A DNA stretch of 43,927 bases from contig JAHBUM010000003.1 in assembly GCA_019638075.1 (NCBI GenBank), positions 1-43,927 of the forward strand, read 5' to 3'. Below are positions 5,178 to 43,260 of the stretch, piece by piece (position 1 is the first letter of the stretch; every line of letters starts with the position of its first letter). A program made the translations under genes and the position numbers. Source of the stretch: Flavobacteriales bacterium (lineage in GTDB: Bacteria; Bacteroidota; Bacteroidia; Flavobacteriales_F; PHOS-HE28). The notes under the pieces are model-generated. The model searched no databases and was not told the origin of the DNA. It worked only from the letters and a program-made list of their open reading frames with translations.

Positions 5178-5257
5178 AGTGGCGAGTAATGAGTGGCGTG
5201 TGGCGAGTCTGCTTCGGGCAGCTGCCACACGCCACTCATTACTCGCCACTCGCCACT
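5178..5257. repeat. Heptamer-unit palindromic element between nuoE and nuoF
   Basis: Perfect 27-bp inverted repeat AGTGGCGAGTAATGAGTGGCGTGTGGC (5178-5204) / (5224-5250) made of 7-bp units, plus one extra CGCCACT unit. Confidence 0.9.
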
Positions 5258-5266
5258 CTTTGAGCC

Positions 5267-6622
5267 ATGGCCCGCAAACTCCTCTTCGAGCACATCGACA
5301 AACCCGGCATCCGTGGGCTGGAAGGCTACCGTGCGAACGGTGGTTACCGCAGCGTGGAGAAGGCGCTCAGGACCATGAGCCCCGATGCTGTTCTTGAGGA
5401 AGTGAAGAAGAGCGGCCTGCGCGGTCGCGGTGGCGCTGGCTTCCCCACAGGCATGAAATGGAGCTTCCTCGCGAAGCCCGAAGGTGTGCCCCGCTACTTA
5501 GTGGTGAACGCCGACGAAAGCGAACCCGGAACCTTCAAGGACCGCTACCTGATGGAGCGGATCCCGCACATCCTCGTGGAAGGTATGATCACATCGAGCT
5601 TCGCGCTCGGTGCGAAGACCAGCTACGTCTATGTGCGCGGCGAGTACTTCTACGTGGCGCGTATCCTGGAACAAGCCATCGCCGAAGCACGCGCTGCGGG
5701 CTGGTTGGGAAAGAACATCCTCGGCAGCGGTTTCGACCACGACATCCATGTGCAAGTGGGTGCTGGCGCCTACATCTGCGGCGAAGAGACCGCCCTGCTC
5801 GAAAGCCTTGAGGGCAAGCGTGGCAACCCGCGCATCAAGCCGCCCTTCCCTGCGGTGAAGGGTCTCTACGACTGCCCCACGGTGGTGAACAACGTGGAGA
5901 CGATCGCGGCCGTGGTGCCCATCGTGAACGACGGCGGCGAGGAATACGCCAAGATCGGCATCGGCAAGAGCACCGGAACGAAGCTCATCAGCGCTGGCGG
6001 CAACATCAAGCGTCCCGGCGTGTACGAGATCGACCTCGGCATCACCTGCGACGAGTTCATCAACAGCGACGAATACTGCGGCGGTGTGGATGGTCGCGCC
6101 TTTAAAGCTGTCGTGCCCGGTGGAAGCAGTGTGCCCATCGTGCCCTACGAGCTGTTCCTGAAGACGCCCACGGGCGAGAACCGCCTGATGACCTACGAGA
6201 GCCTCAGCGAAGGCGGCTTCGCACAGGGCACCATGATGGGTTCCGGTGGCTTCTACGCCTACAACGATGCGCAGTGCATCGTGCGCAGCACCTGGAACCA
6301 CGCACGCTTCTACCACCACGAGAGTTGCGGCCAGTGCAGCCCCTGCCGCGAAGGCACCGGCTGGCTGGACAAGGTGCTGGAGCGTCTGGAGCACGGCGAA
6401 GGCCGGATGGAGGACATCGACCTGCTCTGGGACATCCAGCGGAAGATCGAAGGCAACACCATCTGCCCGCTGGGCGATGCCGCCGCCTGGCCCGTGGCTT
6501 CGGCCATCCGCCACTTCCGCGACGAGTTCGAATACCACGTCACGCACCGTGAGAAAGTGAAGGACCCGAAGCATTTCGCGCGGGAACCTTTCCGGAAGAG
6601 TGCCAAATTCGCGACCGCTTAA
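5267..6622 (+). CDS. nuoF: NADH-quinone oxidoreductase subunit F
   Basis: GLRGRGGAGFPTG, NADESEPG, GAGAYICGEETAL and ESCGQCSPCREG. Confidence 0.98.
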   Translation: MARKLLFEHIDKPGIRGLEGYRANGGYRSVEKALRTMSPDAVLEEVKKSGLRGRGGAGFPTGMKWSFLAKPEGVPRYLVVNADESEPGTFKDRYLMERIPHILVEGMITSSFALGAKTSYVYVRGEYFYVARILEQAIAEARAAGWLGKNILGSGFDHDIHVQVGAGAYICGEETALLESLEGKRGNPRIKPPFPAVKGLYDCPTVVNNVETIAAVVPIVNDGGEEYAKIGIGKSTGTKLISAGGNIKRPGVYEIDLGITCDEFINSDEYCGGVDGRAFKAVVPGGSSVPIVPYELFLKTPTGENRLMTYESLSEGGFAQGTMMGSGGFYAYNDAQCIVRSTWNHARFYHHESCGQCSPCREGTGWLDKVLERLEHGEGRMEDIDLLWDIQRKIEGNTICPLGDAAAWPVASAIRHFRDEFEYHVTHREKVKDPKHFAREPFRKSAKFATA

Positions 6623-6625
6623 GCC

Positions 6626-7642
6626 ATGCCCAAGGTCACCATAGACGGCATCTCGATCGAAGTCCCCGATGGGACCACGATCCTGCAGGCCGCGCGCATG
6701 ATCGGCGAGCGCGACAAGGCCGACCGCCACGTGGTGCCCCCGGCCATGTGCTACTACACCTCGCTGAAGACCAGCGGGGGCTACTGCCGCACGTGCATCG
6801 TGAAGGTGACCAAGGGCAGCGACAAGGACCCGCGTCCCATGCCCAAGCCGGTGGCCAGCTGCCGCACGGCCGTGATGGACGGCATGGAGGTGGCCAACAC
6901 CACCGACCCCACGCTGATCGACGCGCGCAACGGTGTGGTGGAGATGCTGCTGATCAACCACCCGCTGGATTGCCCCATCTGCGACCAGGCCGGTGAATGC
7001 CACCTGCAGGACCTGAGCTACGAGAACGGCAAGGCCGCCAGCCGCTACGAGTTCGAGCGCCGCACCTTCGACCCGATCGACATCGGCGATACGATCAAAT
7101 TGCACATGACGCGCTGCATCCTGTGCTACCGCTGCGTGAAGGTGGCCGAGCAACTCACCGACGGCCGCGTGCATGGGGTGATCAACCGCGGCGATGTGGC
7201 CGAGATCAGCACGTACATCAGTCAGGCGATCGAGAACGACTTCAGCGGCAACATGATCGACGTGTGCCCCGTGGGCGCGCTCACCGACAAGACCTTCCGC
7301 TTCGCCAGCCGCGTGTGGTTCACCAAACCAGTGGATGCGCACCGCAACTGCGAGAACCCCAAGTGCAGTGGCAACGTGGTGCTGTGGCTCAAGGGCAATG
7401 AAGTGCTGCGTGTCACCGGCCGCAAGGACCAGTGGGGCGAGGTGGAGAGCTTCATCTGCAACACCTGCCGCTTCGACAAGAAGGACGTACACGCGTGGAC
7501 GGTGGAAGGCCCACGGAAGATCGACCGCCACAGCGTGATCAGCCAAGGCCACTACCAACTGAAGCGTGAGCAGCCCCTGCTCGCCTCGCCCGCGCCGAAC
7601 GTGCCCGAACTGGCGAAACGAAAAGAACTGAAGGACCGATGA
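6626..7642 (+). CDS. nuoG: NADH-quinone oxidoreductase subunit G, short form (Fe-S domain only)
   Basis: CRTCIV, NHPLDCPICDQAGECHLQ, RCILCYRCV and DVCPVGAL; only 338 aa. Confidence 0.94.
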   Translation: MPKVTIDGISIEVPDGTTILQAARMIGERDKADRHVVPPAMCYYTSLKTSGGYCRTCIVKVTKGSDKDPRPMPKPVASCRTAVMDGMEVANTTDPTLIDARNGVVEMLLINHPLDCPICDQAGECHLQDLSYENGKAASRYEFERRTFDPIDIGDTIKLHMTRCILCYRCVKVAEQLTDGRVHGVINRGDVAEISTYISQAIENDFSGNMIDVCPVGALTDKTFRFASRVWFTKPVDAHRNCENPKCSGNVVLWLKGNEVLRVTGRKDQWGEVESFICNTCRFDKKDVHAWTVEGPRKIDRHSVISQGHYQLKREQPLLASPAPNVPELAKRKELKDR

Positions 7643-8664: not shown

Positions 8665-9245
8665 GCACGATGCAGCCACTGACCAACCGCTCCCGGGTGG
8701 TGAGCGACAAGAAGATGACGCTGATGGAGCGCATCTACCTGCCTGCGATGGTGGGTGGCTTGCTCATCACCATCAAGCACTTCTTCCGCAGGAAGCCTAC
8801 GATCCAGTATCCCGAGCAGAAACGCCCGATCGCCGGGATCTACCGCGGCCAGCACGTGTTGAAGCGCGATGAAAAAGGCCGCGAACGCTGCACCGCATGT
8901 GGCTTGTGCGCAGTAGCCTGCCCTGCGGAAGCCATCACCATGACGAGCGGTGAGCGCAAGAAGGGCGAAGAGCACCTGTACCGCGAGGAAAAATATGCCA
9001 CGGTGTACGAGATCGACATGCTGCGCTGCATCTACTGCGGCGATTGCGAGGAGGCCTGCCCGAAGGAGGCCATCTTCCTCACCGACCGCATCGTGCAAGC
9101 GGATTACCTGCGCATGCCCTTCGTGTTCGGCAAGGACGAACTGGTGGAGCCGATGGATCCCGCCAAGCGTGTGGACGTGAGCAAGCGCCAGACCTCCGAG
9201 GTGCTGAAATTCAAGGAGAATAAACGCTACGCGCACAACCGTTGA
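8661..9245 (+). CDS. nuoI: NADH-quinone oxidoreductase subunit I
   Basis: CTACGLCAVACP and CIYCGDCEEACP 2x[4Fe-4S] motifs; ATGA overlap. Confidence 0.96.
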   Translation: MSTMQPLTNRSRVVSDKKMTLMERIYLPAMVGGLLITIKHFFRRKPTIQYPEQKRPIAGIYRGQHVLKRDEKGRERCTACGLCAVACPAEAITMTSGERKKGEEHLYREEKYATVYEIDMLRCIYCGDCEEACPKEAIFLTDRIVQADYLRMPFVFGKDELVEPMDPAKRVDVSKRQTSEVLKFKENKRYAHNR

Positions 9246-9249
9246 TCCG

Positions 9250-9801: not shown

Positions 9802-9804
9802 AAC

Positions 9805-12017: not shown

Positions 12018-12018
12018 G

Positions 12019-18125: not shown

Positions 18126-18171
18126 GCAAACTTGAAAATGTGAAAGTGCATGTTCACATTTTCAAGTTTGC
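18126..18171. repeat. AT-rich 19-bp perfect inverted repeat upstream of the permease
   Basis: GCAAACTTGAAAATGTGAA - 8 nt - TTCACATTTTCAAGTTTGC. Confidence 0.85.
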
Positions 18172-19902: not shown

Positions 19903-20904
19903 TTAGTTCGTCAGCAGCTCCACATCCCGGCCGGGGACCCTCTGCGGCGCAAGGCCTGTTTTGAGGATGATGCGCTGGCCCTTGTGACCGGCCACAAAGG
20001 AAACAAAACCGGTGCCAAGACCTGTTTTCCCCTCCTTCAGCACCGCGTACAGCGTGCGGCGCAAGGGGTATTGCCCATCGGCGAGCGTGGATTGGTTGGG
20101 CGGGATGGCCGGGTGGATGCCGTCGGAGATCCGGCACAGCGTGATGCGGCTGCGCAGCGCGCGGCATGCCGGGTCGTCCAGATCGCTGATGTGGGCGAAG
20201 GCGATGAGGCCGATGGCATCGGGCGTGGCGCTCACCCGGGCGATCAGGCTGTCCAGTCCGGCGGCGGCGGTCACGTTCTTCAGCGCGTCGGCACGGCCAC
20301 CGAGCAGGGAATCCACCACGGTGCGTACCACGCCACCACGCGCGTCGTCCACGATCACACGGGCGCCACCTCCGGTAAGCGCCTTGCGCAGGTCGTCCAC
20401 GCTGAGGCTGTCGGCGCCGCCGGGCGCTCTCACCACCGCGATGGCATCGGTGAGGATGGGCACGTCATCGGGGAAGAGGTTGCGCGAGCGGAAGAAGACC
20501 GCTTCATCGGCGCCCGGCAGGGTGGCGGTGAACACCACGCGCACCTCATCGGTCCGCATGGCTTCGCGCAATTCCATTTCAGGCAGATAGCTCACCCGCA
20601 CCGTGGCTTCCGCGTAGATGCTCTCGAAGATGAAACGCTCTGCTTCGATGATGCGCTCCAGATCGCGGTCGGCCACCACGCGGATGTCGCCCTTCGTGGG
20701 CACGTCGTCGCGCTGAGGGTCGGGAGCCTTGCCCGTGCAGGCGGCGAGTGTGAAGAAGAGAATGCAGAATGCAGTCGGCAGTCGGCAGTCGGCAGTGGGC
20801 AGTGGGCAGCGGGTCCGGCCGATGGGACTGCCAACTGCCCACTGCCCGCTGCCGACTGACAACTGAAAACCGACAACCGACAACTGCACTCCCCCCCTCT
20901 TCAT
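19903..20904 (-). CDS. PstS-like periplasmic substrate-binding lipoprotein with a repeat-derived N-terminal insert
   Basis: LAAC lipobox, DAIAVV, YPLRRTLY and GLGTGFVSFV..GQRIILK motifs; the ATG at 20904 overlaps the upstream stop (ATGA). Confidence 0.85.
   Translation of the reverse strand: MKRGGVQLSVVGFQLSVGSGQWAVGSPIGRTRCPLPTADCRLPTAFCILFFTLAACTGKAPDPQRDDVPTKGDIRVVADRDLERIIEAERFIFESIYAEATVRVSYLPEMELREAMRTDEVRVVFTATLPGADEAVFFRSRNLFPDDVPILTDAIAVVRAPGGADSLSVDDLRKALTGGGARVIVDDARGGVVRTVVDSLLGGRADALKNVTAAAGLDSLIARVSATPDAIGLIAFAHISDLDDPACRALRSRITLCRISDGIHPAIPPNQSTLADGQYPLRRTLYAVLKEGKTGLGTGFVSFVAGHKGQRIILKTGLAPQRVPGRDVELLTN
20760..20888. repeat. Heptamer-unit inverted repeat inside the 5' end of the pstS-like gene
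   Basis: (GAATGCA)2(GTCGGCA)3(GTGGGCA)2, a spacer, then CTGCCAA CTGCCCA CTGCCCG CTGCCGA CTGACAA CTGAAAA CCGACAA CCGACAA CTGCA. Confidence 0.9.
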
Positions 20905-21101
20905 TCCTTCTCCCCCCTTTGAGCCTTGTACCCGCGCCACCACATGAACAGCCGCACAAGCCCGTACCCGAGCAGCAGCCCACCGAAGAGCATGCGGTGC
21001 TCCGTGATCCGGTCCTTCAGCGCGTTGGTGAACAGCAGGGCCGCGCCCAATGCTGTGTAGAGCAGGGACATCGCCAGTCGCGCTATGCTTCCGAAGGGCA
21101 T
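20901..21101 (-). CDS. Small two-TM membrane protein
   Basis: 66 aa with two hydrophobic segments (FGGLLLGYGLVRL); fills the gap between tonB and the pstS-like gene and is coupled to the latter. Confidence 0.75.
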   Translation of the reverse strand: MPFGSIARLAMSLLYTALGAALLFTNALKDRITEHRMLFGGLLLGYGLVRLFMWWRGYKAQRGEKE

Positions 21102-23365: not shown

Positions 23366-23405
23366 CCGCAAGTAGGGGCGCGGGATCCCGCGCCCCTACT
23401 TGCGG
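23366..23405. repeat. 40-bp perfect palindrome with a GTAG-type REP-like core
   Basis: CCGCAAGTAGGGGCGCGGGA|TCCCGCGCCCCTACTTGCGG; contains the exbB TAG stop. Confidence 0.85.
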
Positions 23406-24527: not shown

Positions 24528-25385
24528 ATGGACCGCAAGACCTTCCTCCGCACCACTGTTCTCGGTGGCACCGCCCTCACCATCGGTGCCGCCGAAGCCA
24601 GCACCGCCCCGGAAAAGGAGGTGGTCGGGTTCAACCATCTACCAACTGAGAACGCACACATCATGAGCAACATGGTACTGCACAAGGCGGCCACCCGTGG
24701 GCACGCCGACCACGGCTGGCTGAACGCCCGCCACACTTTCAGCTTCGCGAACTACTACGACCCGGAGCGCATGCACTTCGGCGTGCTGCGGGTGCTGAAC
24801 GACGATGCCATCGCCGCCGGACGCGGCTTCGGCACGCACCCGCACGACAACATGGAGATCGTGACCATCCCGCTCTCGGGCACCGTGGCGCACAAGGACA
24901 GCATGGGCAACAGCGGCACCATCGGCGCGGGCGAAGTGCAGGTGATGAGCGCCGGCACGGGCATCACGCACAGTGAGTTCAACCACGAGCAGGACAAGGA
25001 ACTGCGGCTGTTGCAGATCTGGATGTTCCCCCGCAAACGCAACGTGACGCCCCGCTACGCGCAGATCAAATTGAACACCGAAGCTGGCGACAACGCCTTC
25101 GAGCAGGTGCTTTCCCCCGACCCGGACGATGCCGGTGTATGGGTGCATCAGGATGCGTGGTTCAACCTCGGCCGTTTCGATGCGGGCAGGAAGGTGGACT
25201 ACCGCGTGAAGCGCAAGGGCAACGGCGTGTATGCCTTCATCATCGAAGGCGAAGCCACCATCAACGGCCAGCAGCTCGCACAGCGCGACGGCCTTGGCGT
25301 GTGGGATGTGGACGAGCTGAACATCGCCACCGGCGCGAACGGCGCGCGCATCCTGCTGATGGATGTGCCGATGGAGCTGGGGTGA
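24528..25385 (+). CDS. Pirin-family protein (YhhW-like) with an N-terminal Tat-like extension
   Basis: RGHADHGWL, HTFSFANYYDP, GFGTHPHDNMEI, HKDSMGN and QVMSAGTGITHSE; alternative start at 24663. Confidence 0.92.
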   Translation: MDRKTFLRTTVLGGTALTIGAAEASTAPEKEVVGFNHLPTENAHIMSNMVLHKAATRGHADHGWLNARHTFSFANYYDPERMHFGVLRVLNDDAIAAGRGFGTHPHDNMEIVTIPLSGTVAHKDSMGNSGTIGAGEVQVMSAGTGITHSEFNHEQDKELRLLQIWMFPRKRNVTPRYAQIKLNTEAGDNAFEQVLSPDPDDAGVWVHQDAWFNLGRFDAGRKVDYRVKRKGNGVYAFIIEGEATINGQQLAQRDGLGVWDVDELNIATGANGARILLMDVPMELG

Positions 25386-25642
25386 GGGGGTAGTGGTCAG
25401 TTGTCGGATGTCTGTTGTCAGTGGCGATACTTGGGATCTGTTCGCATACGGGTCGGGGGAAGAAGTGAAGGAGGTTGGGCAGGGGCAGGCGCAGGGGCAA
25501 TGCTCCTGCCAACTGCTCCTGCCCCTTCACATCATCGGCATCAGCCTTCGCCCCTATTGCGAACAGCCTCTTGGAATGTGAGCGTTGTCCGCCACGCCTT
25601 CCACCAAGGAGCCTGACATCCGACAACTGGCAACTGCCCTCC
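25386..25642. repeat. Nested palindromic element (7-bp-unit outer arms, 6-bp-unit inner hairpin)
   Basis: Outer CAGTTGTCGGATGTC / GACATCCGACAACTG, middle CTGTTCGCA / TGCGAACAG, inner GTGAAGG / CCTTCAC enclosing GGGGCA / TGCTCC hexamer units. Confidence 0.8.
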
Positions 25643-25736
25643 CCCGATCTTCACGGCGATCCGTGCGTAACCAGCACCGCATGCCCGGCGTTGAAGTGCC
25701 CTTGCGTGGGCTTTCTTTGCCCAGCGGCGGCCGTAC

Positions 25737-28104: not shown

Positions 28105-28407
28105 ATGCCCACCCCTACCCGCCCCGTCCTTGCCCGCCGCATCTTTTGGGATGTGGACTTCGACAAGCTGGACTACGACGGCAAGGCGGGCTTCATCATC
28201 GAGCGGGTGTTCGAGCGCGGCGATGTGGAGGATATCCGGCAGTGCAGGAGGTATTATGGCGATGAGAAGGTGATGGGCGCGCTGTTGAGCGCCAGATCCC
28301 TTAAGCTGGATACGCTTCACTTTGTCAGTGCCCTGTTCAAGAAACCTCTTGAAGCGTTCCGATGCTACGCATTGAGACAGTCGAACCCGGAACTCTTTCC
28401 GTACTGA
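28105..28407 (+). CDS. DUF6922-like antitoxin
   Basis: IFWDVDFDKLD...FIIERVFERG...YYG pattern; directly upstream of the AbiEii-type gene; TACCTTCG lies 4 nt before the ATG. Confidence 0.85.
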   Translation: MPTPTRPVLARRIFWDVDFDKLDYDGKAGFIIERVFERGDVEDIRQCRRYYGDEKVMGALLSARSLKLDTLHFVSALFKKPLEAFRCYALRQSNPELFPY

Positions 28408-28988
28408 AACGACTGATGCAGTTGCCCGAACTGAGCGCGTTCAGCTTGGTCGGTGGCACTGCGCTCTCGCTTCGGCATGGGCACCGCAGATCCGTGGATC
28501 TCGATCTGTTCACCACGGAGCCGTTCGATCGCGATGTGGTCATTGCTGCGCTTTCCACGGAGTTCGGTCCGGGTCTGGTGCTCACCCCGTCCAAGGCAGC
28601 ATGGGCCATTTTCGGCTTCATCGAGGAGGTGAAGGTGGACCTCGTGAAATTGCAGCATCCACGGATCGCGGATATCGTTACTGAAGAGGGTGTTCGCATG
28701 TACGCCGACGCCGACATCGCCGCAATGAAGGTGCAAGCCATCCTTGGGCGCGGGAAGAAGAAGGACTTCTGGGACATGAGCGAGTTGTTGCAGCATCATC
28801 CGTTGCAATGGGTGATGGACCGGCACCGGGAAAAATATCCGAACCAACAGCTCGCGATCAGCATCCCGAACGCCCTTCTCTACTTCGCCGATGCCGACAA
28901 AAGCGAGGATCCGGTGTGCCTGAAAGGCCGCACATGGCCGGAGGTGAAGGAGGTCGTTCGTGACGCGGTGGACCGCTACCTGCGTTGA
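28362..28988 (+). CDS. AbiEii/AbiGii-family nucleotidyltransferase toxin (type IV TA)
   Basis: LVGGTALSLRHGHRRSVDLDLF, IAAMKVQAI..RG.KKDFWD motifs. Confidence 0.92.
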   Translation: MLRIETVEPGTLSVLKRLMQLPELSAFSLVGGTALSLRHGHRRSVDLDLFTTEPFDRDVVIAALSTEFGPGLVLTPSKAAWAIFGFIEEVKVDLVKLQHPRIADIVTEEGVRMYADADIAAMKVQAILGRGKKKDFWDMSELLQHHPLQWVMDRHREKYPNQQLAISIPNALLYFADADKSEDPVCLKGRTWPEVKEVVRDAVDRYLR

Positions 28989-29079: not shown

Positions 29080-30177
29080 ATGAGAACGCCCCTCCCCTTC
29101 CTGAGCGCGCTCGTCCTTGCCACAGCCACGACCGCACAGTACAGCACTTTCCCGGACAGCACCGGCCTTCCCGGTGATGGCTTCAGCCTGAGCGGCGCAT
29201 TGGAGCTCTTCAAAAGCGCCAGGGATCTGCAAGCTTTCGAGCAGGCCCTGAACAGCGAGGACAACAAGGTGAACAACCTTGACCTCGACGGTGATGGGCA
29301 GGTGGATTACATCCGTGTGGTGGGCCACAGCAATGGCGGGGCACATGCGATCGTGATGCAGGTGGCGCTTTCCAAGGAAGAGCGGCAGGATGTGGCGGTG
29401 ATCGAGCTTGAGAAGAACGGAGCGGCCTCGGCCACGTTGCAGATCCGTGGTGCCGAAGAGCTCTACGGCGCGGATGTGCTGGTGGAGCCCGTGGCCGAAG
29501 TGGATGCGGGGATGGAGCCATCAAAAGGCCCAGCGCCACCCGAGCTGGTGCGCATGTACGTGTGGGTGAACGTGTGGGACTGGCCGTGCGTGGGCTACCT
29601 CTACGGCCCAAGCTACGTAGGCTGGGATTCCCCATGGTTCTGGAGCTATTATCCACCGTGGTGGCGGCCTTGGCGGCCCATGGGCATGCACGCATGGCAC
29701 CGCTGGTACCGCACATACCACGCGTGGTACCGGCCCACATACACCTGCCATGTGCCCCGCGCCCATGCCGTATACCGTCCGCAGGCCATGCACTCGCCGA
29801 ACATCCACCGGGCCACGGCGCCCATGCGCGAGCAACGCGCCACGATGCGCCCCGCACCAACGGGCCGCCGCGTAGCACCCACCCCACACCCGAACGACCG
29901 CACCATGGACCAGCGCCCACCCGATGTGCGTGGCAGGGACGGAGGCCGCGATGGCAAAGGAGGCCCCGTACCGCAGACCCGGCCCGAAAGGCGCCCGAGC
30001 CCACCACGCACCACACCGGCCGAGCCGCACCGTGGCGATGTGCGAAAGGCCCCCGCACCCCAGCAACCGCGCGAAACAAGGCCGCCCCAGCGACCAGCGC
30101 GCACGACACCGGCCCAGCCCGCGCCCAATTCGCCGACCCGCTCGCCAGCGCCCACCCGGTCGCCGAGGACACGTTGA
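29080..30177 (+). CDS. Secreted hypothetical protein (EF-hand-like loop, Trp/Tyr-rich block, Pro/Arg-rich tail)
   Basis: Signal peptide MRTPLPFLSALVLATATTA, DLDGDGQVDY loop, WFWSYYPPWWRPWRP block and low-complexity C-terminus. Confidence 0.8.
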   Translation: MRTPLPFLSALVLATATTAQYSTFPDSTGLPGDGFSLSGALELFKSARDLQAFEQALNSEDNKVNNLDLDGDGQVDYIRVVGHSNGGAHAIVMQVALSKEERQDVAVIELEKNGAASATLQIRGAEELYGADVLVEPVAEVDAGMEPSKGPAPPELVRMYVWVNVWDWPCVGYLYGPSYVGWDSPWFWSYYPPWWRPWRPMGMHAWHRWYRTYHAWYRPTYTCHVPRAHAVYRPQAMHSPNIHRATAPMREQRATMRPAPTGRRVAPTPHPNDRTMDQRPPDVRGRDGGRDGKGGPVPQTRPERRPSPPRTTPAEPHRGDVRKAPAPQQPRETRPPQRPARTTPAQPAPNSPTRSPAPTRSPRTR

Positions 30178-33680: not shown

Positions 33681-34673
33681 ATGGCCAAGAAACCAGCGAA
33701 AAAGGCAGCGAAGCCAGTGAAGAAGGCAGCGCCTAAAACGTCTTCGTCCCGCACCGGCGGGAAGGTCTCGAAGCCCGCCGCCAAACCGGCAGCGAAAAAA
33801 GCGGCATCTAAGAAGCCCGCTGCCAAGGCTCCGGTGAAGAAGGTGTCTTCTTCCCGCACCAGCGGAAAGCCTGCCGCCAAACCCGCACCGGCTAAAAAAG
33901 TGGTGGCGAAAAAGGCTCCGATCAAACCGGCACCCAAGCCCGCCGTTTCGGCGGGCGGAAGTAAGAAGGTCGCCCCCGCCAAACCGGCTCCGAAGCCCGC
34001 AGCCTCCAAAGCTGCACCGGCCAAGGCGGCACCGAAACCTGTCGTGAAAGCGGCTGCACCGGCCAAACCCGCGCCGAAGAAGCCCGAGACCAAAGCTGTA
34101 CCCACTCCCAAGAGCGTGAAACCGGCACCCGCACCGGAAAAACCCGTGAAGAAGGAAACGAAGAAGGAGGAGAAGGCCGCCCAGAAGGAGGCGAAAGCCG
34201 CTGCATCAAGCAAGCCGTTGGTGACCCAAGTGGTGGCCCCCAACCGCCCCATGGCCGCACCGGTGGTGAAGAAGCAGACATCCACGTTGCTGAGCGCCGA
34301 CAAGGCCCGCTACAGCGACGAGGAGCTTGCCGAATTCCGTGAGCTGATCAACAAGAAGCTGGACGAGGCCCGCAAGGACTACGACCTGCTGAAGCAGACG
34401 CTGGCGAACACCGACAACAACGGCACGGACGATACCAGCCCCTCGTTCAAGATGATCGAGGACGGCAGCGAAACGCTGAGCCGCGAGGAGACCGCGCAGC
34501 TCGCGGGCCGTCAGGAGAAGTTCATCAAGCACCTGGAGGACGCGCTGCTGCGGATCCGCAACAAGACCTACGGCATCTGCCGCGTCACCGGCCGCCTGAT
34601 CAGCAAGGAGCGCCTGCGTTTGGTGCCACATGCCACATTGAGCATCGAGGCCAAGCAGCAGATGGGCAACTGA
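33681..34673 (+). CDS. TraR/DksA-family regulator with a ~205-aa Lys/Ala/Pro-rich N-terminal extension
   Basis: C-terminal RYSDEELAEFRELI...YGICRVTGRLISKERLRLVPHATLSIEAK; sits between ileS and lspA; TATATTCG upstream of the ATG. Confidence 0.9.
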   Translation: MAKKPAKKAAKPVKKAAPKTSSSRTGGKVSKPAAKPAAKKAASKKPAAKAPVKKVSSSRTSGKPAAKPAPAKKVVAKKAPIKPAPKPAVSAGGSKKVAPAKPAPKPAASKAAPAKAAPKPVVKAAAPAKPAPKKPETKAVPTPKSVKPAPAPEKPVKKETKKEEKAAQKEAKAAASSKPLVTQVVAPNRPMAAPVVKKQTSTLLSADKARYSDEELAEFRELINKKLDEARKDYDLLKQTLANTDNNGTDDTSPSFKMIEDGSETLSREETAQLAGRQEKFIKHLEDALLRIRNKTYGICRVTGRLISKERLRLVPHATLSIEAKQQMGN

Positions 34674-35355: not shown

Positions 35356-35407
35356 TGCGGGGGCGTTGATGGTATCCGCTTGGGGATCTCTTCGGGCATG
35401 CTATGCG

Positions 35408-35701
35408 GGGGCAGTTGTCAGGTCGCAGTTGTCGGTTGTCAGTCTCCTTGGTGGCAATAAATACAAATGCGCTGCGGACTTTCTCTCCGCGCCCTCTGCC
35501 CTTCTGCGGTTAAAGTTCCGTCCGCCTTTGGCGGACTTTTTCGTTTACCGCGAGAGGGGCAGAAGACGCGGAGAATGCAAATGCGCAAGCGGTTGGCAGC
35601 CTCTCTTTTGTTGCGAAAAAGGTCTGATGACATAGCGGGCAACGTGCCCACATATCAGACCCCATCACTGACAACTGCGACCCGACAACGGACAACTGCC
35701 C
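35408..35701. repeat. Nested palindromic element between convergent genes
   Basis: 7-bp-unit arms at 35408-35443 / 35667-35701, ~9-bp-unit arms at 35484-35514 / 35544-35574, core GTCCGCC-TTT-GGCGGAC at 35520-35536, side hairpin at 35621-35661. Confidence 0.85.
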
Positions 35702-35703
35702 AT

Positions 35704-36600
35704 TCACCTCGCCAGATCCACGCGCAGGCCGAACAGGTGGCCCCATGCGGTGCGCGGTCCCGGCTGTACTTCGGGCACACCGCCCAGCGAGAGCGACGGG
35801 CGCATTTCGTAGCACAGGTTCAGCGCACGCCAGAACGCATTGCGCCTGCCCAGCCGGTAGCTCACGCCCAGCGGCGTATACAGGACGATCACGAGGTCGT
35901 CCTTGGTCCGGATCTCCTCTTCCTGATACGGGTCGATCCCGAAGCCTCCACTGTACGAACCCGAGCCATAAGACTGGCTGACATAGCGGTCCTCGTGGTA
36001 CTCCACGCGCCCGACGCCGCCGAACGCAGCCCCGACAGCGGCCCCGGCACCACCGTACAGCGCCCACCGACGCGGGAACTCCTTCAGGAAGATCACCGAG
36101 GCATCCAGCATCAGTTGCTGGTAGCTATGCGAGATGTCGTAACGGCTGGAGAACACGGAATCGACCAGCGTGATGTTGCCGGTCTGCGATGAGGTGAGCG
36201 TGTCATAAGGAACGCGATCGTACCGCGACAGGGACATGCTGGACCCGCTGTGGGCCTGATAGGAGAAGCCCGCACGCAGGTAGGCACCCGATCTTTTCTC
36301 CCGTGCCGAGCCACCGAGCCTGAGCGTTGCGTGGGCCGAGAACAACCCCGCCTTCGCCAAGTCCCGGAAGAGGCCCCGCCCCCGCGTATACCCGCTCAGG
36401 TCGTTCTTGAGCAGTTCCGATGTGGGCAGCAGGCTCCGCCATTGGAGCAGCCCCATCGCATAGTCGCGTTCCACTTGGAAGCCGCCCAGCACGAACACAT
36501 CGCTGACCAAGGGAATGGCGACGCTGTCGGGAACGTATTGGGCGTTGGATACGCCGCAGAGCATGCATGCAGCGAACAGGGCGATGGCTTTCGTTCTCAT
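35704..36600 (-). CDS. Hypothetical exported protein, possibly an outer-membrane beta-barrel
   Basis: Signal peptide ending SNA-Q; amphipathic beta-like strands (YLRAGFSY, LYGGAGAAVG, PLGVSYRL, FGLRVDL). Confidence 0.7.
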   Translation of the reverse strand: MRTKAIALFAACMLCGVSNAQYVPDSVAIPLVSDVFVLGGFQVERDYAMGLLQWRSLLPTSELLKNDLSGYTRGRGLFRDLAKAGLFSAHATLRLGGSAREKRSGAYLRAGFSYQAHSGSSMSLSRYDRVPYDTLTSSQTGNITLVDSVFSSRYDISHSYQQLMLDASVIFLKEFPRRWALYGGAGAAVGAAFGGVGRVEYHEDRYVSQSYGSGSYSGGFGIDPYQEEEIRTKDDLVIVLYTPLGVSYRLGRRNAFWRALNLCYEMRPSLSLGGVPEVQPGPRTAWGHLFGLRVDLAR

Positions 36601-37642: not shown

Positions 37643-37668
37643 GTATGGGAGATCGGACTGGGGGTCAT

Positions 37669-37768
37669 GTGCGAGATGAAGAGGGTGAGAGCGTGCGAAG
37701 GTGCGAGGGACTGGACTCACTCTCGCTCTCTATTACTCTCGCAGCTTTTAACCCTTGCATTTTCACAC
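37669..37768. repeat. Degenerate octamer-unit inverted repeat in the divergent asd / LTD-protein region
   Basis: GTGCGAGA TGAAGAGG GTGAGAGC GTGCGAAG GTGCGAGG followed by complementary CTCACTCT CGCTCTCT ATTACTCT CGCA... units. Confidence 0.55.
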
Positions 37769-37832: not shown

Positions 37833-40436
37833 ATGCGCCTCCGATACTTGCTTGCCGCGTTCATCCTTTGTGCCGGGTCCACCGCGCAGGCCCAGTTCGT
37901 GGACGACTTCAGCGATGGCGATCTCACCGCGAACCCGGCGTGGAGCGGCGATGACGCGGTGTTCATCATCAACGCGGCGCAGCAGCTGCAGTTGAACAAC
38001 ACCGTGGCGGGCACCAGCCAGTTGCGCAGCGCCAACGCCATGGGCACGCTGAACGACATGGAATGGCGGGTGCGGGTGAAGCAGACCTTCAGCGGCAGCG
38101 GCAGCAACTTCGGGCGCGTGTACCTCGTGAGCGACCAGGCCGACCTCACCGGTCCGCTCAATGGCTACTACCTGCAATTCGGCGAGGCGGGCAGCAACGA
38201 TGCGATCGAACTGTTCGCGCAGACCGGAAGCGTGAGCACATCGGTATGCCGTGGCGCGGAGGCGCAGATCGCGAACTCGTTCGATGTGGGCGTGCAGGTG
38301 AAGCGTGATGTGGCGGGCAGTTGGCAACTGTTCGTGGATGTCACCGGCGGAACGAACTACGCGCTTCAGGCCAGCGGCACGAACGCCACACATAACACCA
38401 GCGCCTTCATCGGGGTGCGCTGCACCTACACGGCGAGCAACGCCAACAAGTTCTTCTACGACGACTTCTACGCCGGGCCGGTGATCGTGGACAACACGCC
38501 GCCCACCATCCTGAGCGCCAGTGCAGCGGGAGCAGCGGATGTGACCGTACTGTTCAGCGAACCCGTGGAAGAGATGAGCGCGGAGACCGTCGGCAACTAC
38601 GGCCTCTCGTCAGGAATTGCCATCAGCAGCGCCATCCGCAATGGCATCGATGCCTCCATCGTACACCTCTCGCTCGCTCTTCCGCTGACCAACGGCACGG
38701 AATATACCGTTACCGCCAACGGTGTGGAGGACCTGGCCGGGAACGCGAGCAGCGGTACCAGCGCGACGTTCACCTATGTGGTGCCCGAAGTGCCACAGCC
38801 CGGCGACGTGGTCATCAACGAGATCATGGCCGATCCATCGCCGGTGGTGCAACTGCCCGAGGCCGAGTTCCTCGAACTCTTCAACGCCACCACGGACAAG
38901 TTCCTCGATCTCGCGGGCTGGCAATTGAGCACCGCGAGCACGCAGGCCACATTGCCCGCCGTTGTGCTGGGTCCGGGCGAATACGTGGTGCTCGTGAACA
39001 ACGGGCAACTGGCCAACTTCGCCGGGCTGCCCAACGTGATGGGCTGGAGCCTGAGCAACACCGCGCTGCTCAACGGCGGCACCACGCTCACGCTCTCCGC
39101 CCCCGGAAGCGTGGTGATCGATCAGGTGACCTACTCCAGCACCTGGTACGGCGATGATGTGAAGGACGACGGCGGCTGGACCCTGGAGCGCATCAACCCC
39201 TTCGCGCCGTGCAGCGATGCAAGCAACTGGACAGCGAGCAACGACGAGCGCGGCGGCACACCCGGCGCGCAGAACTCGGTGTTCGACGATACGCCCGATA
39301 CCGATGCGCCGGTGATGCAGGCCGTGCAAGTGGTGTCGGCCACGGAGATCGTGCTGGTGTTCAACGAAGGACTTGATGTGGCGGGTGTGACCAGCGCGGA
39401 GATCACCATCGCACCTGTGCTGGACATTGCCTCCATCGTGCCAGCGGGGGCGGCCTTCGACCGTATCCGGCTGCTGCTGGATACGCCGATGCAGGAGGGT
39501 GTGGTGCATACGATCACCGTGGAAGGCGTGGCCGATTGCAGCGGCAACTTGATCGAGCCGTCCACCGGTTCCTTCGCGCTGCCCGAGGCGATCGCGCCAC
39601 TGGACATCGTGATCAACGAAGTGCTGTACGACCCCATCGGCAATGGCAGCGACTTCGTGGAACTGTACAACCGCAGCGCGAAGGTGCTCAGCCTTGGCGG
39701 GCTTCAGCTGGCGAACGAGAGCAACGGCGTGATCGGCAATTTCCGCGTGATCACCGCCGATCCCGTGATCCTGATGCCCGGTGCATACATCCTGCTGGCC
39801 ACGAACACCACCGACATCGCCACGCGCTATCCGCAGAGCCATACCGACCGCTTCCTGCAGATGAGTTTGCCGGGCTACAACAACGGCTCGGGCACGGTGG
39901 TGCTGGCCGATGCCGCGAACAACACGCTGGACCTGTTCCGTTACAACGACGACCTGCACTTCACCCTGCTGAACAAGACCGAAGGCACCAGCTTGGAGCG
40001 CGTGGACCCGGACCGCCCCACCGACGACAACACCAACTGGCACAGCGCCGCGCAGGACATCGGCAAGGCCACGCCCGGCTTCCAGAACTCGCAGTACGCA
40101 CCCGCACCCGAGGCACGCGGCGAAATGACGATCGACCCCGCGATCTTCAGTCCCGACAACGACGGCCATCAGGATCTGCTGACGATCGCCTACCGCTTCG
40201 ACCAGCCCGGTTTCGTGGCCACATTGAAGCTATACGACGTGGCGGGCCGCGAAGTGCGCACGCTGTGGAACAACGAGCTATTGGGCACTACGGGCGCCGT
40301 GTCGTGGGATGGCATCATGGACAGCGGCAGCAAGGCGCGCATGGGGCCGTACATCGTGCTGATGGAAGCCTACGACCTGAGCGGCAACGTGGAGAAGTAC
40401 CGCAAGACGGTGACGCTGGCGCATCGATTGGATTGA
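37833..40436 (+). CDS. Secreted lamin-tail-domain / Ig-like protein with a T9SS type B-like C-terminal domain
   Basis: Signal peptide, two VINE(I/V) LTD repeats with LER and TPG..NS motifs, DNTPP / DTDAP Ig-like starts, and FSPDNDG...WDG C-terminus. Confidence 0.85.
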   Translation: MRLRYLLAAFILCAGSTAQAQFVDDFSDGDLTANPAWSGDDAVFIINAAQQLQLNNTVAGTSQLRSANAMGTLNDMEWRVRVKQTFSGSGSNFGRVYLVSDQADLTGPLNGYYLQFGEAGSNDAIELFAQTGSVSTSVCRGAEAQIANSFDVGVQVKRDVAGSWQLFVDVTGGTNYALQASGTNATHNTSAFIGVRCTYTASNANKFFYDDFYAGPVIVDNTPPTILSASAAGAADVTVLFSEPVEEMSAETVGNYGLSSGIAISSAIRNGIDASIVHLSLALPLTNGTEYTVTANGVEDLAGNASSGTSATFTYVVPEVPQPGDVVINEIMADPSPVVQLPEAEFLELFNATTDKFLDLAGWQLSTASTQATLPAVVLGPGEYVVLVNNGQLANFAGLPNVMGWSLSNTALLNGGTTLTLSAPGSVVIDQVTYSSTWYGDDVKDDGGWTLERINPFAPCSDASNWTASNDERGGTPGAQNSVFDDTPDTDAPVMQAVQVVSATEIVLVFNEGLDVAGVTSAEITIAPVLDIASIVPAGAAFDRIRLLLDTPMQEGVVHTITVEGVADCSGNLIEPSTGSFALPEAIAPLDIVINEVLYDPIGNGSDFVELYNRSAKVLSLGGLQLANESNGVIGNFRVITADPVILMPGAYILLATNTTDIATRYPQSHTDRFLQMSLPGYNNGSGTVVLADAANNTLDLFRYNDDLHFTLLNKTEGTSLERVDPDRPTDDNTNWHSAAQDIGKATPGFQNSQYAPAPEARGEMTIDPAIFSPDNDGHQDLLTIAYRFDQPGFVATLKLYDVAGREVRTLWNNELLGTTGAVSWDGIMDSGSKARMGPYIVLMEAYDLSGNVEKYRKTVTLAHRLD

Positions 40437-40557
40437 GGGGGGCGTCAGTTGTTAGTTGTCAGACTGCCGCGCATGGCCGACTTCCGGCACGTGCGTCGGC
40501 TTGTACGTCCGGCGATACGCGGCTTGGCACACGCGTGGTGGTCCACTGACCGCCCCC
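40437..40557. repeat. Hairpin spanning the convergent gap, with short heptamer units
   Basis: GGGGGCGTCAGT ... ACTGACCGCCCCC terminal arms; TCAGTTG TTAGTTG TCAG units on the left. Confidence 0.55.
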
Positions 40558-41619
40558 CTACCGCTCCCTCTCCCGTTTCTGCGGCTGCAAGGGATCGGCC
40601 CCGATGGTCTTGTACTCCTCGCGGTTGCGGTGGATGTCGCAGGCCATCCATACCGCGGCGCGGAAGCTGCCTTCGCTGGCCACGCCCTGCCCGGCGATGT
40701 CGAGGCCGGTGCCGTGGTCGGGGCTGGTGCGCACGATGGGCAGGCCGGCCGTGAAGTTGACGCCGTGGCCGAAGCTGAGCGCCTTGAAGGGCGCAAGGCC
40801 TTGGTCGTGGTACATGGCGAGCACGCCATCGAAGTGCTTGTAGCTGCCGTTGCCGAAGAAGCCGTCGGCGGCATAAGGTCCCATGGCGTTGATCCCTTCG
40901 TCGTTCAGGCGGCGCACGGCCGGGACGATGCGCTCCTTGTCCTCGCTGCCCAGTGCGCCGCCATCGCCGGCGTGCGGGTTGAGGCCGAGGATGGCGATGC
41001 GCGGCGATACGATGCCGAAGTCGCGCAGCAGGCTCTGGTGCAGCAGTCGCGCCTTGGCGATGATCCGGTCGGTGGTGATGGCGTTCGCCACATCCTTGAT
41101 GGGGATGTGGCCTGTGACGGTGCCCACGCGCAGCCCATCGCCCACGAGCAGCATCAGCACCTCGCCATCGCCGCCCGCGAGGTGTTGCAGGTATTCGGTG
41201 TGGCCCGGATGGGCGAAGCCCGCCTGCTGCATGGCGTGCTTGTCGATCGGAGCGGTCACCAGCACGTCGATCTTGGCGCTGCCGAGGTCCTGTGCGGCGG
41301 CCTCCAGACTTTTGATCGCATAGGCCGCGAGCGGCCCTGAGTGCTTGCCGAACTCCACAGCCACGTCCTCCTCCCACACGTTCACCACGTTGAATTTGCG
41401 GGCCACGGCATCGCGCGCATCGTTCACGCGCTGGAACTGCACATCATCCAGTTTCAGCGCCTTGCGGTGATGGCTCACCGTGTGCGCGCTGGCGTAGAGG
41501 ATGGGCGTGATGTCCGTGTGCATGCGGGCATCCTCGAAGCATTTCAGCACCACTTCGATGCCGATGCCGTTGAGGTCGCCGCAGGTGATGCCGATGCGGA
41601 GGGGATTACGGGGTTCCAA
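40558..41619 (-). CDS. pdxA: 4-hydroxythreonine-4-phosphate dehydrogenase
   Basis: GITCGDLNGIG, VTAPIDK, GHTEYL, GLNPHAGD, AMYHDQGL and RTSPDHGT; TTG start. Confidence 0.96.
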   Translation of the reverse strand: MEPRNPLRIGITCGDLNGIGIEVVLKCFEDARMHTDITPILYASAHTVSHHRKALKLDDVQFQRVNDARDAVARKFNVVNVWEEDVAVEFGKHSGPLAAYAIKSLEAAAQDLGSAKIDVLVTAPIDKHAMQQAGFAHPGHTEYLQHLAGGDGEVLMLLVGDGLRVGTVTGHIPIKDVANAITTDRIIAKARLLHQSLLRDFGIVSPRIAILGLNPHAGDGGALGSEDKERIVPAVRRLNDEGINAMGPYAADGFFGNGSYKHFDGVLAMYHDQGLAPFKALSFGHGVNFTAGLPIVRTSPDHGTGLDIAGQGVASEGSFRAAVWMACDIHRNREEYKTIGADPLQPQKRERER

Positions 41620-41629
41620 GGTTGGGTGA

Positions 41630-41720
41630 GGGGGCGAAGGGGGAAGGAAGAAAGGAGGAAGGAAAAAGAGGAAAGAAGGACGGCGAAGGAGGAAGGAAGA
41701 AGAGTAAAGAAAGAAGAGCG
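41630..41720. repeat. Polypurine / polypyrimidine tract of degenerate 7-bp units
   Basis: GAAGGAA GAAAGGA GGAAGGA ... GAAGGAG GAAGGAA GAAGAGT AAAGAAA GAAGAGC between pepA and pdxA. Confidence 0.75.
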
Positions 41721-41721
41721 A

Positions 41722-43155
41722 TCAGCGCGTTGCGCGTTGTTTGATGAATTCGTAGAAGAGGCGTACGCCCACGCCGGTGCCGCCCTTGGTACGGTAGCCA
41801 TCGCGGCGGGTCAGGAAAGCGGGGCCAGCGATGTCCAGATGGATGTACGGGTGCGTGGTGAAGCGCGCGAGGAACTTCCCGGCGGTCTGTGCGCCGCCGA
41901 GGTCGCTGCCGAGGTTCTTGATGTCGGCCACGTCGCTGATGATCTCCTCGCCGTACTCGTCCCAGAAGGGCAGGCGGGCGGTGCGCTCGAACACGGTGTT
42001 ACCGGCGGTTTCGAGCTGCTGGAACTCGGTGTCGGGCGCGGTGCCCATCACGGCGGTGCCGTAGGTGCCGATGGCGCGCATGGCGGCTCCGGTGAGGGTG
42101 GCGATGCTCATCACCAGCTCGGGCTTGTAGCGTTCGCCGTAGCTGAGGGCATCGGCGAGGATCAGGCGGCCTTCGGCATCGGTGTTCAGCACTTCCACGG
42201 TGAGGCCGCTGTGCATGCGGATGACATCGCCGGGTGTGTAGGCGTTGCCGCCGGGGCGGTTGTCCGTGGCGGGGATCAGGCCGATCACATGCACGGGCAG
42301 CTCCTGCTTGGCGACGAGCGCGATGGCGCAGGCCACCGCAGCGGCACCGGCCATGTCGCACTTCATCTGGTCCATGCTGTTGGGCGTGGGTTTCAGGCTG
42401 AGGCCGCCCGTGTCGTACACCACGCCCTTGCCCACCAGCACCAAGGGTTTCTTGTTCACGGCGCTCTTCGGCTTCCATTCCAGCACGCTGAAAGTGGGCG
42501 GATCAAGGCTGCCCTTGTTCACGGCCAGCAGGCCACCCATGCCCTGCGCTTCGATGCGGGCCTTCTCCATCACCTCCACCTTGAAGCCCGCGCTCTTGGC
42601 CAGCGTGCGGATCTCGGCGGCCAGTTGCGTGGCGTTGAGGAAGCTCACCGGCTCGTTCACAAGGTCGCGGGCGGTGCAGGTGGCTTCTGCGATGTCCTCC
42701 AATTCCTCCACCTCCTTGGCGCTCACCTCCTTGGCTATGATGGTCAGCTTTTCCATCGTGGGCGCGCCTTTCTCGTCGCTCTTGTACTTGCGGAAGGCGT
42801 AGTTGCCAAGTGCGGCACCTTCTGCGAGCGCGAGGGTGAGGGTGCCATCGTCCTGCAAACTGATGAGCTGTGCCTCGATGCGCTTGGCGCTGTTGAGGCG
42901 GCCGATCATGAGGTCACCGGCGCGGCGGGCCTTTTCCAGTTGAACGTGCGTGGCGGCCTCCTTCACGAGGTGGACCAGCACCAAGCGCCCGCTTACATCG
43001 CATACCGCCAGTTGCGGGTCGGCGTTGAGCTGTTCGGTAAGGTATTGCCGGTCGCCTCGCTCCAGATCGAGGGCGCGCAACTGGCCGATGTCGCTGAGGA
43101 TGACGAGGGAATCGCGCGCAGCGGCCGGGCGCGTGCTCTTCGAGAGGGTGATCAT
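41722..43155 (-). CDS. pepA: Leucyl aminopeptidase (peptidase M17)
   Basis: VGKGVVYDTGGLSLK, MKCDMAGAA, NTDAEGRLILAD, ATLTGA and HLDIAG; TATCTTCG at 43176-43183 upstream. Confidence 0.95.
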   Translation of the reverse strand: MITLSKSTRPAAARDSLVILSDIGQLRALDLERGDRQYLTEQLNADPQLAVCDVSGRLVLVHLVKEAATHVQLEKARRAGDLMIGRLNSAKRIEAQLISLQDDGTLTLALAEGAALGNYAFRKYKSDEKGAPTMEKLTIIAKEVSAKEVEELEDIAEATCTARDLVNEPVSFLNATQLAAEIRTLAKSAGFKVEVMEKARIEAQGMGGLLAVNKGSLDPPTFSVLEWKPKSAVNKKPLVLVGKGVVYDTGGLSLKPTPNSMDQMKCDMAGAAAVACAIALVAKQELPVHVIGLIPATDNRPGGNAYTPGDVIRMHSGLTVEVLNTDAEGRLILADALSYGERYKPELVMSIATLTGAAMRAIGTYGTAVMGTAPDTEFQQLETAGNTVFERTARLPFWDEYGEEIISDVADIKNLGSDLGGAQTAGKFLARFTTHPYIHLDIAGPAFLTRRDGYRTKGGTGVGVRLFYEFIKQRATR

Positions 43156-43191
43156 CGCTTGTGGAATGGAAGGGCCGAAGATAGCCGTACA

Positions 43192-43260
43192 AGGACAGGA
43201 GCAGGGGCAGTTGGCAGGGGCAAGAGCAAGAGCATTGCCCCTGCGCCTGCCAACTGTCCC
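43192..43260. repeat. Hexamer-unit hairpin in the divergent pepA promoter region
   Basis: GGAGCA / GGGGCA / AGAGCA units and complement; 43230-43251 is an exact inverted copy of 25484-25505. Confidence 0.8.

Follow-up and report, generated by a model that had tools for sequence, protein, structure and literature searches.

The stretch of DNA analysed here, referred to as the window, is the 43,927-nucleotide contig C223 (JAHBUM010000003.1, positions 1 to 43,927) of a Flavobacteriales bacterium (assembly GCA_019638075.1; 3.32 Mb in 380 contigs, 62.7% G+C, 92.9% complete). According to Pfam, the first half of the window carries nuoB-nuoN, a symporter and a permease gene, a TPR gene, a gene for a PBP-like lipoprotein and tonB-exbD-exbD-exbB; the second half carries pirin and MBOAT genes, a DUF6922/AbiEii pair, ileS, a DksA/TraR-like gene and lspA, followed at the end by an unknown gene, asd, a gene for a lamin-tail-domain (LTD) protein, pdxA and pepA. 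Genes were called with our own hexamer caller, which reproduced the Pfam map of the window. At the junctions between these genes lie arrays of short degenerate units with a fixed period, mostly paired as inverted arms, and these arrays are the subject of this analysis. We consider it likely (probability of about 0.7) that they are copied palindromic elements, gene-less kin of the cassettes that carry TIGR02436 or GxxExxY genes, with an anatomy resembling that of the intervening sequences (IVS) of 23S rRNA.

The initial annotation of the window, made from its letters alone, had described such arrays, usually as mirror arms, at ten sites. Fixed-period degenerate units are indeed present at all ten, and most of the sites are inverted repeats. 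When the sites were folded as single strands and compared with dinucleotide shuffles (z-scores), six were graded as strong, two as moderate (25474 and 40437), one as weak (37669) and one as unfolded (41630). A hairpin of the AGTGGCG family (5178..5257), with perfect 27-nt arms around a 19-nt loop (z -11.7 for 5172-5262), separates nuoE (stop at 5171) from nuoF (start at 5267). Positions 25386..25640 form a single nested hairpin of 255 nt (z -7.3 for 25383-25645), in which AGTTGTC-type outer arms and several middle layers enclose a core (25474-25530) that is itself a hairpin of GGGCAG hexamers (z -2.9 for 25468-25540). Another hexamer hairpin, located at 43196..43263, where pepA (start at 43155) and the next gene diverge (z -4.7 for 43190-43268), belongs to the same family as this core, with which it has a 22-nt stretch including the loop in common (as reverse complement). 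On the 3' side of lspA, a nested hairpin of 294 nt (35408..35701; z -9.8 for 35400-35705) combines AGTTGTC-type outer arms, including the inner motif TCTCCTTGGTGG of that family, with an inner hairpin (35484-35574; z -6.2 for 35480-35580) built of CGCAGAGG-like units of about 9 nt, the type that flanks GxxExxY genes. Its innermost stem (35520-35543, GTCCGCC..GGCGGAC) is followed by a T-run.

The remaining intergenic sites are less regular. A decayed element of 8-mers (TGCGAGrG / CyCTCGCA) at 37669..37745, in the divergent spacer between asd and the LTD protein gene, reached a z-score of only -1.7 (37660-37750), which was equalled by 15 of 200 shuffles, and a degenerate element at 40437..40556, with a G6 cap plus TCAGTTGTTAGTTGTCAG at its 5' end and CCACTGACC plus a C6 cap at its 3' end, scored -2.3 (40430-40565; equalled by 6 of 200 shuffles). 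Mirror arms, although found at most sites, are missing between pepA and pdxA, where a purine-rich solo array of GAAGGAR units (41636..41717) shows no fold at all (0 kcal/mol for 41625-41725). The unit types of two of these sites recur as the arms of TIGR02436 genes: that of 37669 in another genome (G007, locus L038) and that of 41636 on contig C235 of the genome studied here.

Placement at gene boundaries likewise holds in general, but not at 20760. The composite hairpin at 20759..20893, composed of mirrored AGAATGC, AGTCGGC and AGTGGGC units with a GACAACY tail (z -8.6 for 20755-20895), lies inside the minus-strand gene for the PBP-like lipoprotein, in the part coding for the signal peptide. 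Read in frame, it corresponds to residues 5-48 of the precursor, with MKRGG before it and the lipobox AFCILFFTLAAC after it. From Met to the lipobox Cys the precursor counts 57 residues, compared to 15 and 17 in the orthologues of G011 and G006, two genomes equally close to this one, which have the same ATGA start context and lack the element. Genome-wide, an in-frame element with Pfam domains around the insert was found in nine genes, coding for RadA, LpxB, an LD-carboxypeptidase, a B12-dependent mutase, Mfd, a GNAT protein, kynureninase, a GT9 glycosyltransferase and WbqC. Such in-frame copies sit in loops or linkers of the proteins. The inserts of RadA and LpxB are AGTGGCG-family hairpins, as at 5178, and the 16-18 inserted residues are missing from the orthologues of both proteins in three congeners each. 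Next to the lipoprotein gene, a conserved hydrophobic open reading frame (ORF) of 56 aa (20901-21071, minus strand), whose stop codon shares ATGA with the start codon of the PBP-like gene, is also present in G011 and G006 and has no Pfam or NCBIfam match.

The arrays are far more frequent than expected from shuffled sequence. A strict lag scan of the whole 3.32-Mb genome recovered 67 period-7 and 23 period-8 arrays, against none in shuffles, and a looser scan recovered 198 and 115, against 22 and 7. In the looser scan lags 4, 5, 10 and 11 remained at or under the level of the shuffles, and codon periodicity in coding sequence confounds lags 6, 9 and 12. An inverted mate at most 2.5 kb away accompanies 150 of the 198 period-7 arrays and 84 of the 115 period-8 arrays. 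When periodicity was disregarded, the genome yielded 399 long inverted repeats, and 0.9 Mb of shuffled sequence yielded none. Of the 399, 195 have 7 as their best arm period, 75 have 8, 29 have 9 and 34 have 11, and periodic arms are the rule among the long palindromes of this genome. These repeats merge into 308 elements, together 38.2 kb, of which 272 are intergenic (162 in tandem, 63 in convergent and 47 in divergent spacers). Spacers make up about 10% of the genome, and about 9-17% of them are occupied within each spacer type. The largest families, counted by inverted repeats, are AGTTGTC (71), CATGTG (21) and GAGTGGC (15).

The 7-mer units, described in the initial annotation as differing in sequence, are nevertheless related to each other: 122 of the 198 period-7 arrays are phased on AGT and have a common profile, R-G-T-n-G-k-C, so that AGTGGCG, AGTCGGC and AGTTGTC are variants of one superfamily. 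The arms are 94.5% complementary, and the G-rich arm comes first (5'), on either strand, in 102 versus 17 of the 158 periodic hairpins. Runs of G and C as caps (5' GGGG, 3' CCCC) occur in only 27 and 31 of these hairpins (0 and 1 in the reverse arrangement) and were rejected as a defining feature. In a 400-kb sample of another genome (G012; loci L263-L282), palindromes are dominated by an abundant non-periodic family, CAAGGTCCCC..GGGAGACCTTG.

Five PF05635/TIGR02436 genes are present in the genome, along with a single PF13366/TIGR04256 (GxxExxY) gene. All five score 52-104 bits with TIGR02436 (cut-off 24), three of them also pass the PF05635 cut-off with the other two just under it, and the GxxExxY gene scores 144 bits with TIGR04256 (cut-off 35), its translation containing GFLESVY as the GxxExxY motif. 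The initial annotation had stated that similar arrays flank genes of these two families in other Bacteroidota, and a link of this kind proved accurate: inverted periodic arms enclose all five TIGR02436 genes and the single GxxExxY gene, with a different unit for each gene. These gene-bearing kin are small cassettes in which arms of this kind enclose one small gene, and their arms recur without a gene at other loci (16-23 for the cassette on contig C27, 16-18 for C252, 8-9 for C347, 6 for C81, 1-2 for C36 and 1 for C235). No gene of either family lies in the window, as had been stated, which profile matches and tblastn both confirm. A tblastn search with 34 IVP (TIGR02436) proteins and one GxxExxY protein found only the six intact genes in the genome, the next best match having an E-value of 0.04. 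The suggestion that the sites are remnants of decayed cassettes loses its ground here: since no trace of either gene is detectable in any gene-less element, these elements are not decayed genes.

To extend the comparison to other genomes, the inverted similarity of gene flanks was scored against permuted flank pairs, with the 95th percentile as threshold. Among TIGR02436 loci, 25 of 34 passed in the genus (27 of 33 under a different start rule), 22 of 30 in the phylum and 63 of 79 in species genomes sampled from many phyla. In this last set 27 of 31 loci from outside Bacteroidota passed, in Planctomycetota, Acidobacteriota, Proteobacteria, Verrucomicrobiota, Gemmatimonadota, one melainabacterium and one genome of the candidate phyla radiation (CPR). 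For GxxExxY loci the counts were 21 of 30 or 16 of 29. The arm period goes with the type of cargo: it is 7 in 92 of the 112 passing TIGR02436 loci, and among 16 passing GxxExxY loci it is 7 in none, 8 in four and 9 in ten (Fisher p 8e-11, a value that is only a guide because the loci were the best-scoring matches and kin are not independent). The GxxExxY cassettes combine a TIGR04256 protein, with a PD-(D/E)XK nuclease fold, with units of 8-9 nt. The G-rich arm is again mostly the 5' one at TIGR02436 loci (G>C in 97, C>G in 6). The longest arms seen, of about 240 nt with some 34 GGTGGAC-type heptamers per side, enclose a TIGR02436 gene on a contig of a Planctomycetota metagenome-assembled genome (MAG; locus L141).

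This anatomy is known from the IVS of 23S rRNA. In Coxiella, as described by Warrier et al. (2016, PMC4990558), the IVS has a 28-bp stem formed by terminal inverted repeats, which is cut in vitro by RNase III, and two to three tandem GACAGAT heptamers, in a strain-dependent number, before the S23p ORF. ORFs of the 23S_rRNA_IVP type have also been noted within rRNA insertions in a study on CPR bacteria. The IVS of Leptospira and Coxiella resemble the elements described here in the long stem of terminal inverted repeats, the heptamers in the stem region and the PF05635/TIGR02436 cargo; forms with and without an ORF and a sporadic presence are further likenesses. The window elements have the long stem, and all five PF05635 genes elsewhere in the genome, none of them in the window, are located in the loop. 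The insertion site differs: the elements lie between or inside protein-coding genes, nothing in the window matches Rfam, and none of 59 TIGR02436 loci overlaps rRNA, although MAGs seldom assemble rRNA, so that this count leaves room for rRNA-borne copies. They also differ in numbering hundreds per genome, in being nested and in including a second cargo type with its own period.

Comparison with relatives revealed filled and empty alleles at orthologous junctions, as the initial annotation had anticipated, for instance at nuoE/nuoF, nuoD/nuoE, tonB/PBP, asd/LTD and 3' of lspA. The nuoE/nuoF junction measures 98 nt both here and in G011, where it holds a diverged hairpin of the same family; other inserts bring it to 190, 112 and 104 nt in three congeners (G006, G014 and G001), and it measures 2-19 nt in nine other genomes of the genus and 23-36 nt in other families. 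At nuoD/nuoE (4611..4620, plus strand) the site is empty in the window, where the nuoD stop and the nuoE start overlap (ATGA), and in G006 it is filled with a 0.5-kb cassette in which a GxxExxY gene lies between inverted 9-mer arrays (L119); the end of this cassette is spanned by two contigs that overlap by 59 nt. The asd/LTD element is missing from the orthologous spacers of 66-70 nt in G011, G017 and G014. Both the element 3' of lspA and the gene at 35704-36600 are missing in G011, in which lspA and asd are adjacent. That gene, a minus-strand ORF of 298 aa that adjoins the 35408 element, has no family match, and its copy in G017 is 31% identical. Between pirin and MBOAT, where the window has only the 255-nt hairpin of 25386..25640, G006 and G011 have a YceI-like gene and lack this hairpin; in G011 (contig C57) this stretch measures 4.4 kb and holds, besides the YceI-like gene, a large gene (at least 1.2 kb) of the FG-GAP/type IX secretion system type. 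Over the 38-kb syntenic region the window contains seven long inverted repeats and G011 none. In a 360-kb sample of G010, the sole congener without either cargo family, one inverted repeat was found and the period-7 counts were at background; by the same measure, inverted repeats number 108 per Mb here and 37-80 in three other congeners.

The abundance of the elements varies among relatives as well. The pattern GTTGTCRGTTGTCRG of the AGTTGTC family has 154 matches here, 78, 54 and 26 in three congeners and none in twelve, with 6 and 0 in the two closest relatives. Element numbers thus differ enormously among species of one genus, in the form of lineage bursts, and the pattern count per genome does not follow the number of cargo genes. 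Copies of this family at tens of loci agree in the order of their unit variants, with GTTGTCGGTTGTCAGGGGGCAGTTGTCAG among the common blocks, and in their non-repeat inner cores (TCTCCTTGGTGG ... GCAGAAGCCACGGAGACAGGCATTTC), and their loops hold hairpins of other families (GCTTGAA, CAGATG and others). That unit order and inner cores are common to dozens of loci suggests that whole elements were copied, and the dedicated process that was supposed to build or rewrite the arrays in place is not borne out.

In-place growth of immobile arrays, whether dedicated or accidental, by slippage and arm-to-arm conversion in a cruciform or by repeat addition at a break, nevertheless deserves to be weighed, although we regard it as unlikely. 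Several features would suit it. The period is fixed while the unit sequence varies widely across phyla; the 5178 hairpin is complementary at 27 of 27 positions yet only about 60% like the hairpin at the same site in G011, where the flanking genes are 88% identical; and the G-rich strand runs 5' to 3' towards the centre on both sides, as expected if repeats were added to the two 3' ends of a break. The heptamer number also differs among Coxiella strains (PMC4990558). Identical unit order and non-repeat cores at tens of loci are not what such growth predicts, and neither are the near-identical arms of orthologous TIGR02436 cassettes in four species (L026-L029). Variation in unit number, which the initial annotation had proposed to look for in reads, was absent as well: the elements of the window are unchanged in the contigs of four public runs, in which rare variants would be invisible, and contigs of these runs (X1-X4) span the elements at 25386, 35408, 37669, 40437, 41630 and 43192 without gaps. 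A joint from 35454 to 35665, seen in three of the runs, had no more than 20 letters on one of its sides and was attributed to other copies of the same family.

If the elements are copied, the question arises what moves them. Y1 enzymes (RAYT/IS200-like transposases) act on hairpins, and a gene flanked by palindromes of a gene-less cohort recalls the REPIN-RAYT systems, in which the coding copy is likewise flanked by palindromes of a dispersed gene-less cohort and several families can occur per genome. With three PF01797 matches in the genome, the elements could be of the REP/REPIN type (REP, repetitive extragenic palindromic sequences) and moved by such a transposase, the TIGR02436 and GxxExxY genes being passive cargo. 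However, the one match inspected, a RAYT-like gene on contig C126, is not flanked by periodic arms and is followed by GTAGCC-n4-GGCTAC palindromes; the other two Y1 matches are weaker. A cargo-specific period would moreover not be expected of passive cargo, and we consider this explanation highly improbable. REPIN-RAYT systems also differ from the elements described here, whose cargo is of another kind than a Y1 transposase, whose arms consist of units in tandem and whose largest cohorts are without a resident cognate gene. In C126:3200-4100 of this genome (G000) the Y1 gene is followed by at least seven copies of the GTAGCC-n4-GGCTAC palindrome, an ordinary REP-like system that is separate from the periodic hairpins.

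Mobility through RNA was considered too. Avd, the accessory protein of diversity-generating retroelements (DGRs), works with a reverse transcriptase (RT), and TIGR02436 proteins match the DGR Avd model weakly (E-values of 2.6e-10 and 1.7e-6, under the cut-off); hairpin RNA excised by RNase III might then be copied back into DNA by an RT with the Avd-like protein as cofactor. The single RT match in the genome, a 444-aa ORF on another contig (G000 C338:13821-14441), looks like the RT-maturase of a group II intron, the GxxExxY cassettes have the same architecture without an Avd-like gene, and neither poly-A nor other marks of retro-copies were seen, so that we give this proposal hardly any weight, the least of the alternatives.

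A further explanation attributes the hairpins to the host, as regulatory RNA structures (terminators, attenuators, RNase III sites or mRNA stabilisers) selected at each junction. It would agree with the very stable folds (on average -68 kcal/mol as RNA), with the position of elements next to stops and starts, some of them within operons such as nuo, with the T-run after the innermost stem at 35520-35543 and with the cleavage of the rRNA version by RNase III (PMC4990558). Against it, the same junctions are empty in close relatives, elements also occur in the 47 divergent spacers and inside coding regions, and the same sequences are found at unrelated genes; Rfam assigned no family to the window or to 60 cassette loci. 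Had sense RNA kept the stems, G:U-compatible mismatches would exceed A:C mismatches on the sense strand. Neither such an excess nor an energy advantage of the sense strand was found (figures below), and we regard regulation by the host as very unlikely to account for the elements. The 94.5% complementarity of the arms fits an origin as exact complements followed by decay. Taken with the copies located in essential genes, it speaks against an obligatory cleavage of RNA, and remains compatible with the cutting of transcribed elements by RNase III.

The copied palindromic elements that we favour therefore correspond to whole, nested or decayed copies of a palindromic superfamily resembling miniature inverted-repeat transposable elements (MITEs), in which short degenerate units are repeated in tandem to form two mirror-image arms. 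It is plain from the comparisons that they are copied, nested, polymorphic among relatives and tolerated almost anywhere. A number of points weigh against the reading as a whole. No transposase, target-site duplication or other hallmark of known transposition was found, with no duplication discernible in four filled/empty comparisons, in which the flanks were variable, and the unchanged window elements in the contigs of the four runs give no sign of ongoing movement. The AGTTGTC, CATGTG and GAGTGGC families have no cognate cargo gene in this assembly (92.9% complete, 380 contigs), and G017, which has an AGTTGTC-armed TIGR02436 gene, contains only three pattern matches, so that there is no support for a dependence on a resident cognate protein. 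The loci of the flank test were the best-scoring matches instead of random draws, and relatives among them are not independent. In elements of co-directional spacers, G:U mismatches numbered 74 against 89 A:C, without sense-strand bias, the same was true for the arms of TIGR02436 loci (53 against 79), and of 159 elements 63 had the more stable fold as sense and 90 as antisense RNA. Any step at the RNA level is argued by analogy with the rRNA version, and the binding of the arms by the cargo proteins is something that we only infer.

Other classes of repeats resemble the elements in part. MITEs and transposon ends with multiple subterminal binding sites likewise have terminal inverted repeats, non-autonomous copies, nesting and lineage bursts, and differ in the transposase and target-site duplication that are not seen here. 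Rickettsia palindromic elements (RPE) are palindromic repeats inserted in frame in protein genes, where they add a loop or linker peptide; the likeness is one of architecture, not of compared sequence, and the elements described here are mostly intergenic, with gene-bearing relatives. Cyanobacterial STRR (short tandemly repeated repetitive sequences) are intergenic tandem heptamers and thus a comparable class. The sample of TIGR02436 loci from all phyla, located with a 5-protein alignment, includes no cyanobacterial locus, so that the link to STRR is drawn solely from general background and the similarity of the units. Another such class are the TAACTGA direct repeats (one set inverted) of Beggiatoaceae, Cyanobacteria and five Bacteroidetes, for which translational control was proposed (MacGregor 2015, PMC4679880); the text of that paper makes no mention of four-helix-bundle, intervening-sequence or GxxExxY genes. 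Read on the other strand, TAACTGA becomes AGTTATC, one of the unit variants within the AGTTGTC arrays of this genome, in which tandem 7-nt units are found intergenically with the consensus RGTnGkC. Both kinds of array are intergenic tandem heptamers, often just before start codons, with a patchy phylogenetic spread, whereas the arrays here form the mirror-image arms of palindromes that are linked with two gene families. Among open-access papers and bioRxiv preprints, searched in their main texts, none came to light in which TIGR02436 or GxxExxY genes outside rRNA are connected with periodic inverted arms.

As a mechanism, we propose that the elements would be propagated at the DNA level, their two arms being made exactly complementary and afterwards decaying neutrally, and that they may be tolerated because the insert folds on itself and keeps the reading frame open. 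The cargo protein would serve the spread or upkeep of its element in cis and that of some gene-less copies in trans. It is possible, though we hold it only tentatively, that this protein reads the unit array and in this way serves mobility, which would explain why the period is specific to the cargo. Transcribed stems would probably be substrates of RNase III, by analogy with the rRNA version, with cleavage not being obligatory because copies are located inside essential coding genes. The rule that the G-rich arm comes first may be kept by selection, as a transcript from either side would then never expose an unpaired C-rich stretch on which Rho could load. In a wider and equally speculative view, TIGR02436 four-helix-bundle proteins and GxxExxY mini-nucleases might be the element-encoded factors of an unrecognised, phylum-spanning class of palindromic mobile elements, each reading a tandem-unit code in its own register (7 nt versus 8-9 nt), and the rRNA IVS, the cyanobacterial STRR and the Beggiatoa TAACTGA arrays might be the ends, solo arms or special insertion sites of that class.

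Some further features of the window are reported here in their own right. Two inverted repeats are not periodic: a perfect palindrome of 40 nt (20-nt arms, loop 0) at 23366-23405, between the second exbD and exbB, and a perfect, A/T-rich inverted repeat of 19 nt with an 8-nt loop at 18126-18171, between the start of the amino-acid permease gene and the end of the TPR gene. The DUF6922 and AbiEii genes, the latter coding for a nucleotidyltransferase of type IV toxin-antitoxin systems, form a pair at 28105-28988 that is followed by an ORF without family match (29080-30177). The DksA/TraR-like gene (33681-34673) contains two tandem repeats of 21 nt, at 33689-33731 and 34162-34201, and run X4 shows small deletions in this gene, in frame by appearance, at about 34172-34201.

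The elements described here would bring into a single frame three matters unexplained for decades, namely bacterial heptamer arrays, the intervening sequences of rRNA and two very large protein families, TIGR02436 and GxxExxY. The rule that emerges is simple: the period of the arms can be predicted from the type of cargo, and of the two arms the G-rich one is first. A tenth of the spacers of a genome can be taken up by such elements, which can also break MAG assemblies at repeats, add peptides to essential proteins and differ between the closest relatives. This makes them relevant to annotation, strain typing and the reading of operons in Bacteroidota and beyond.

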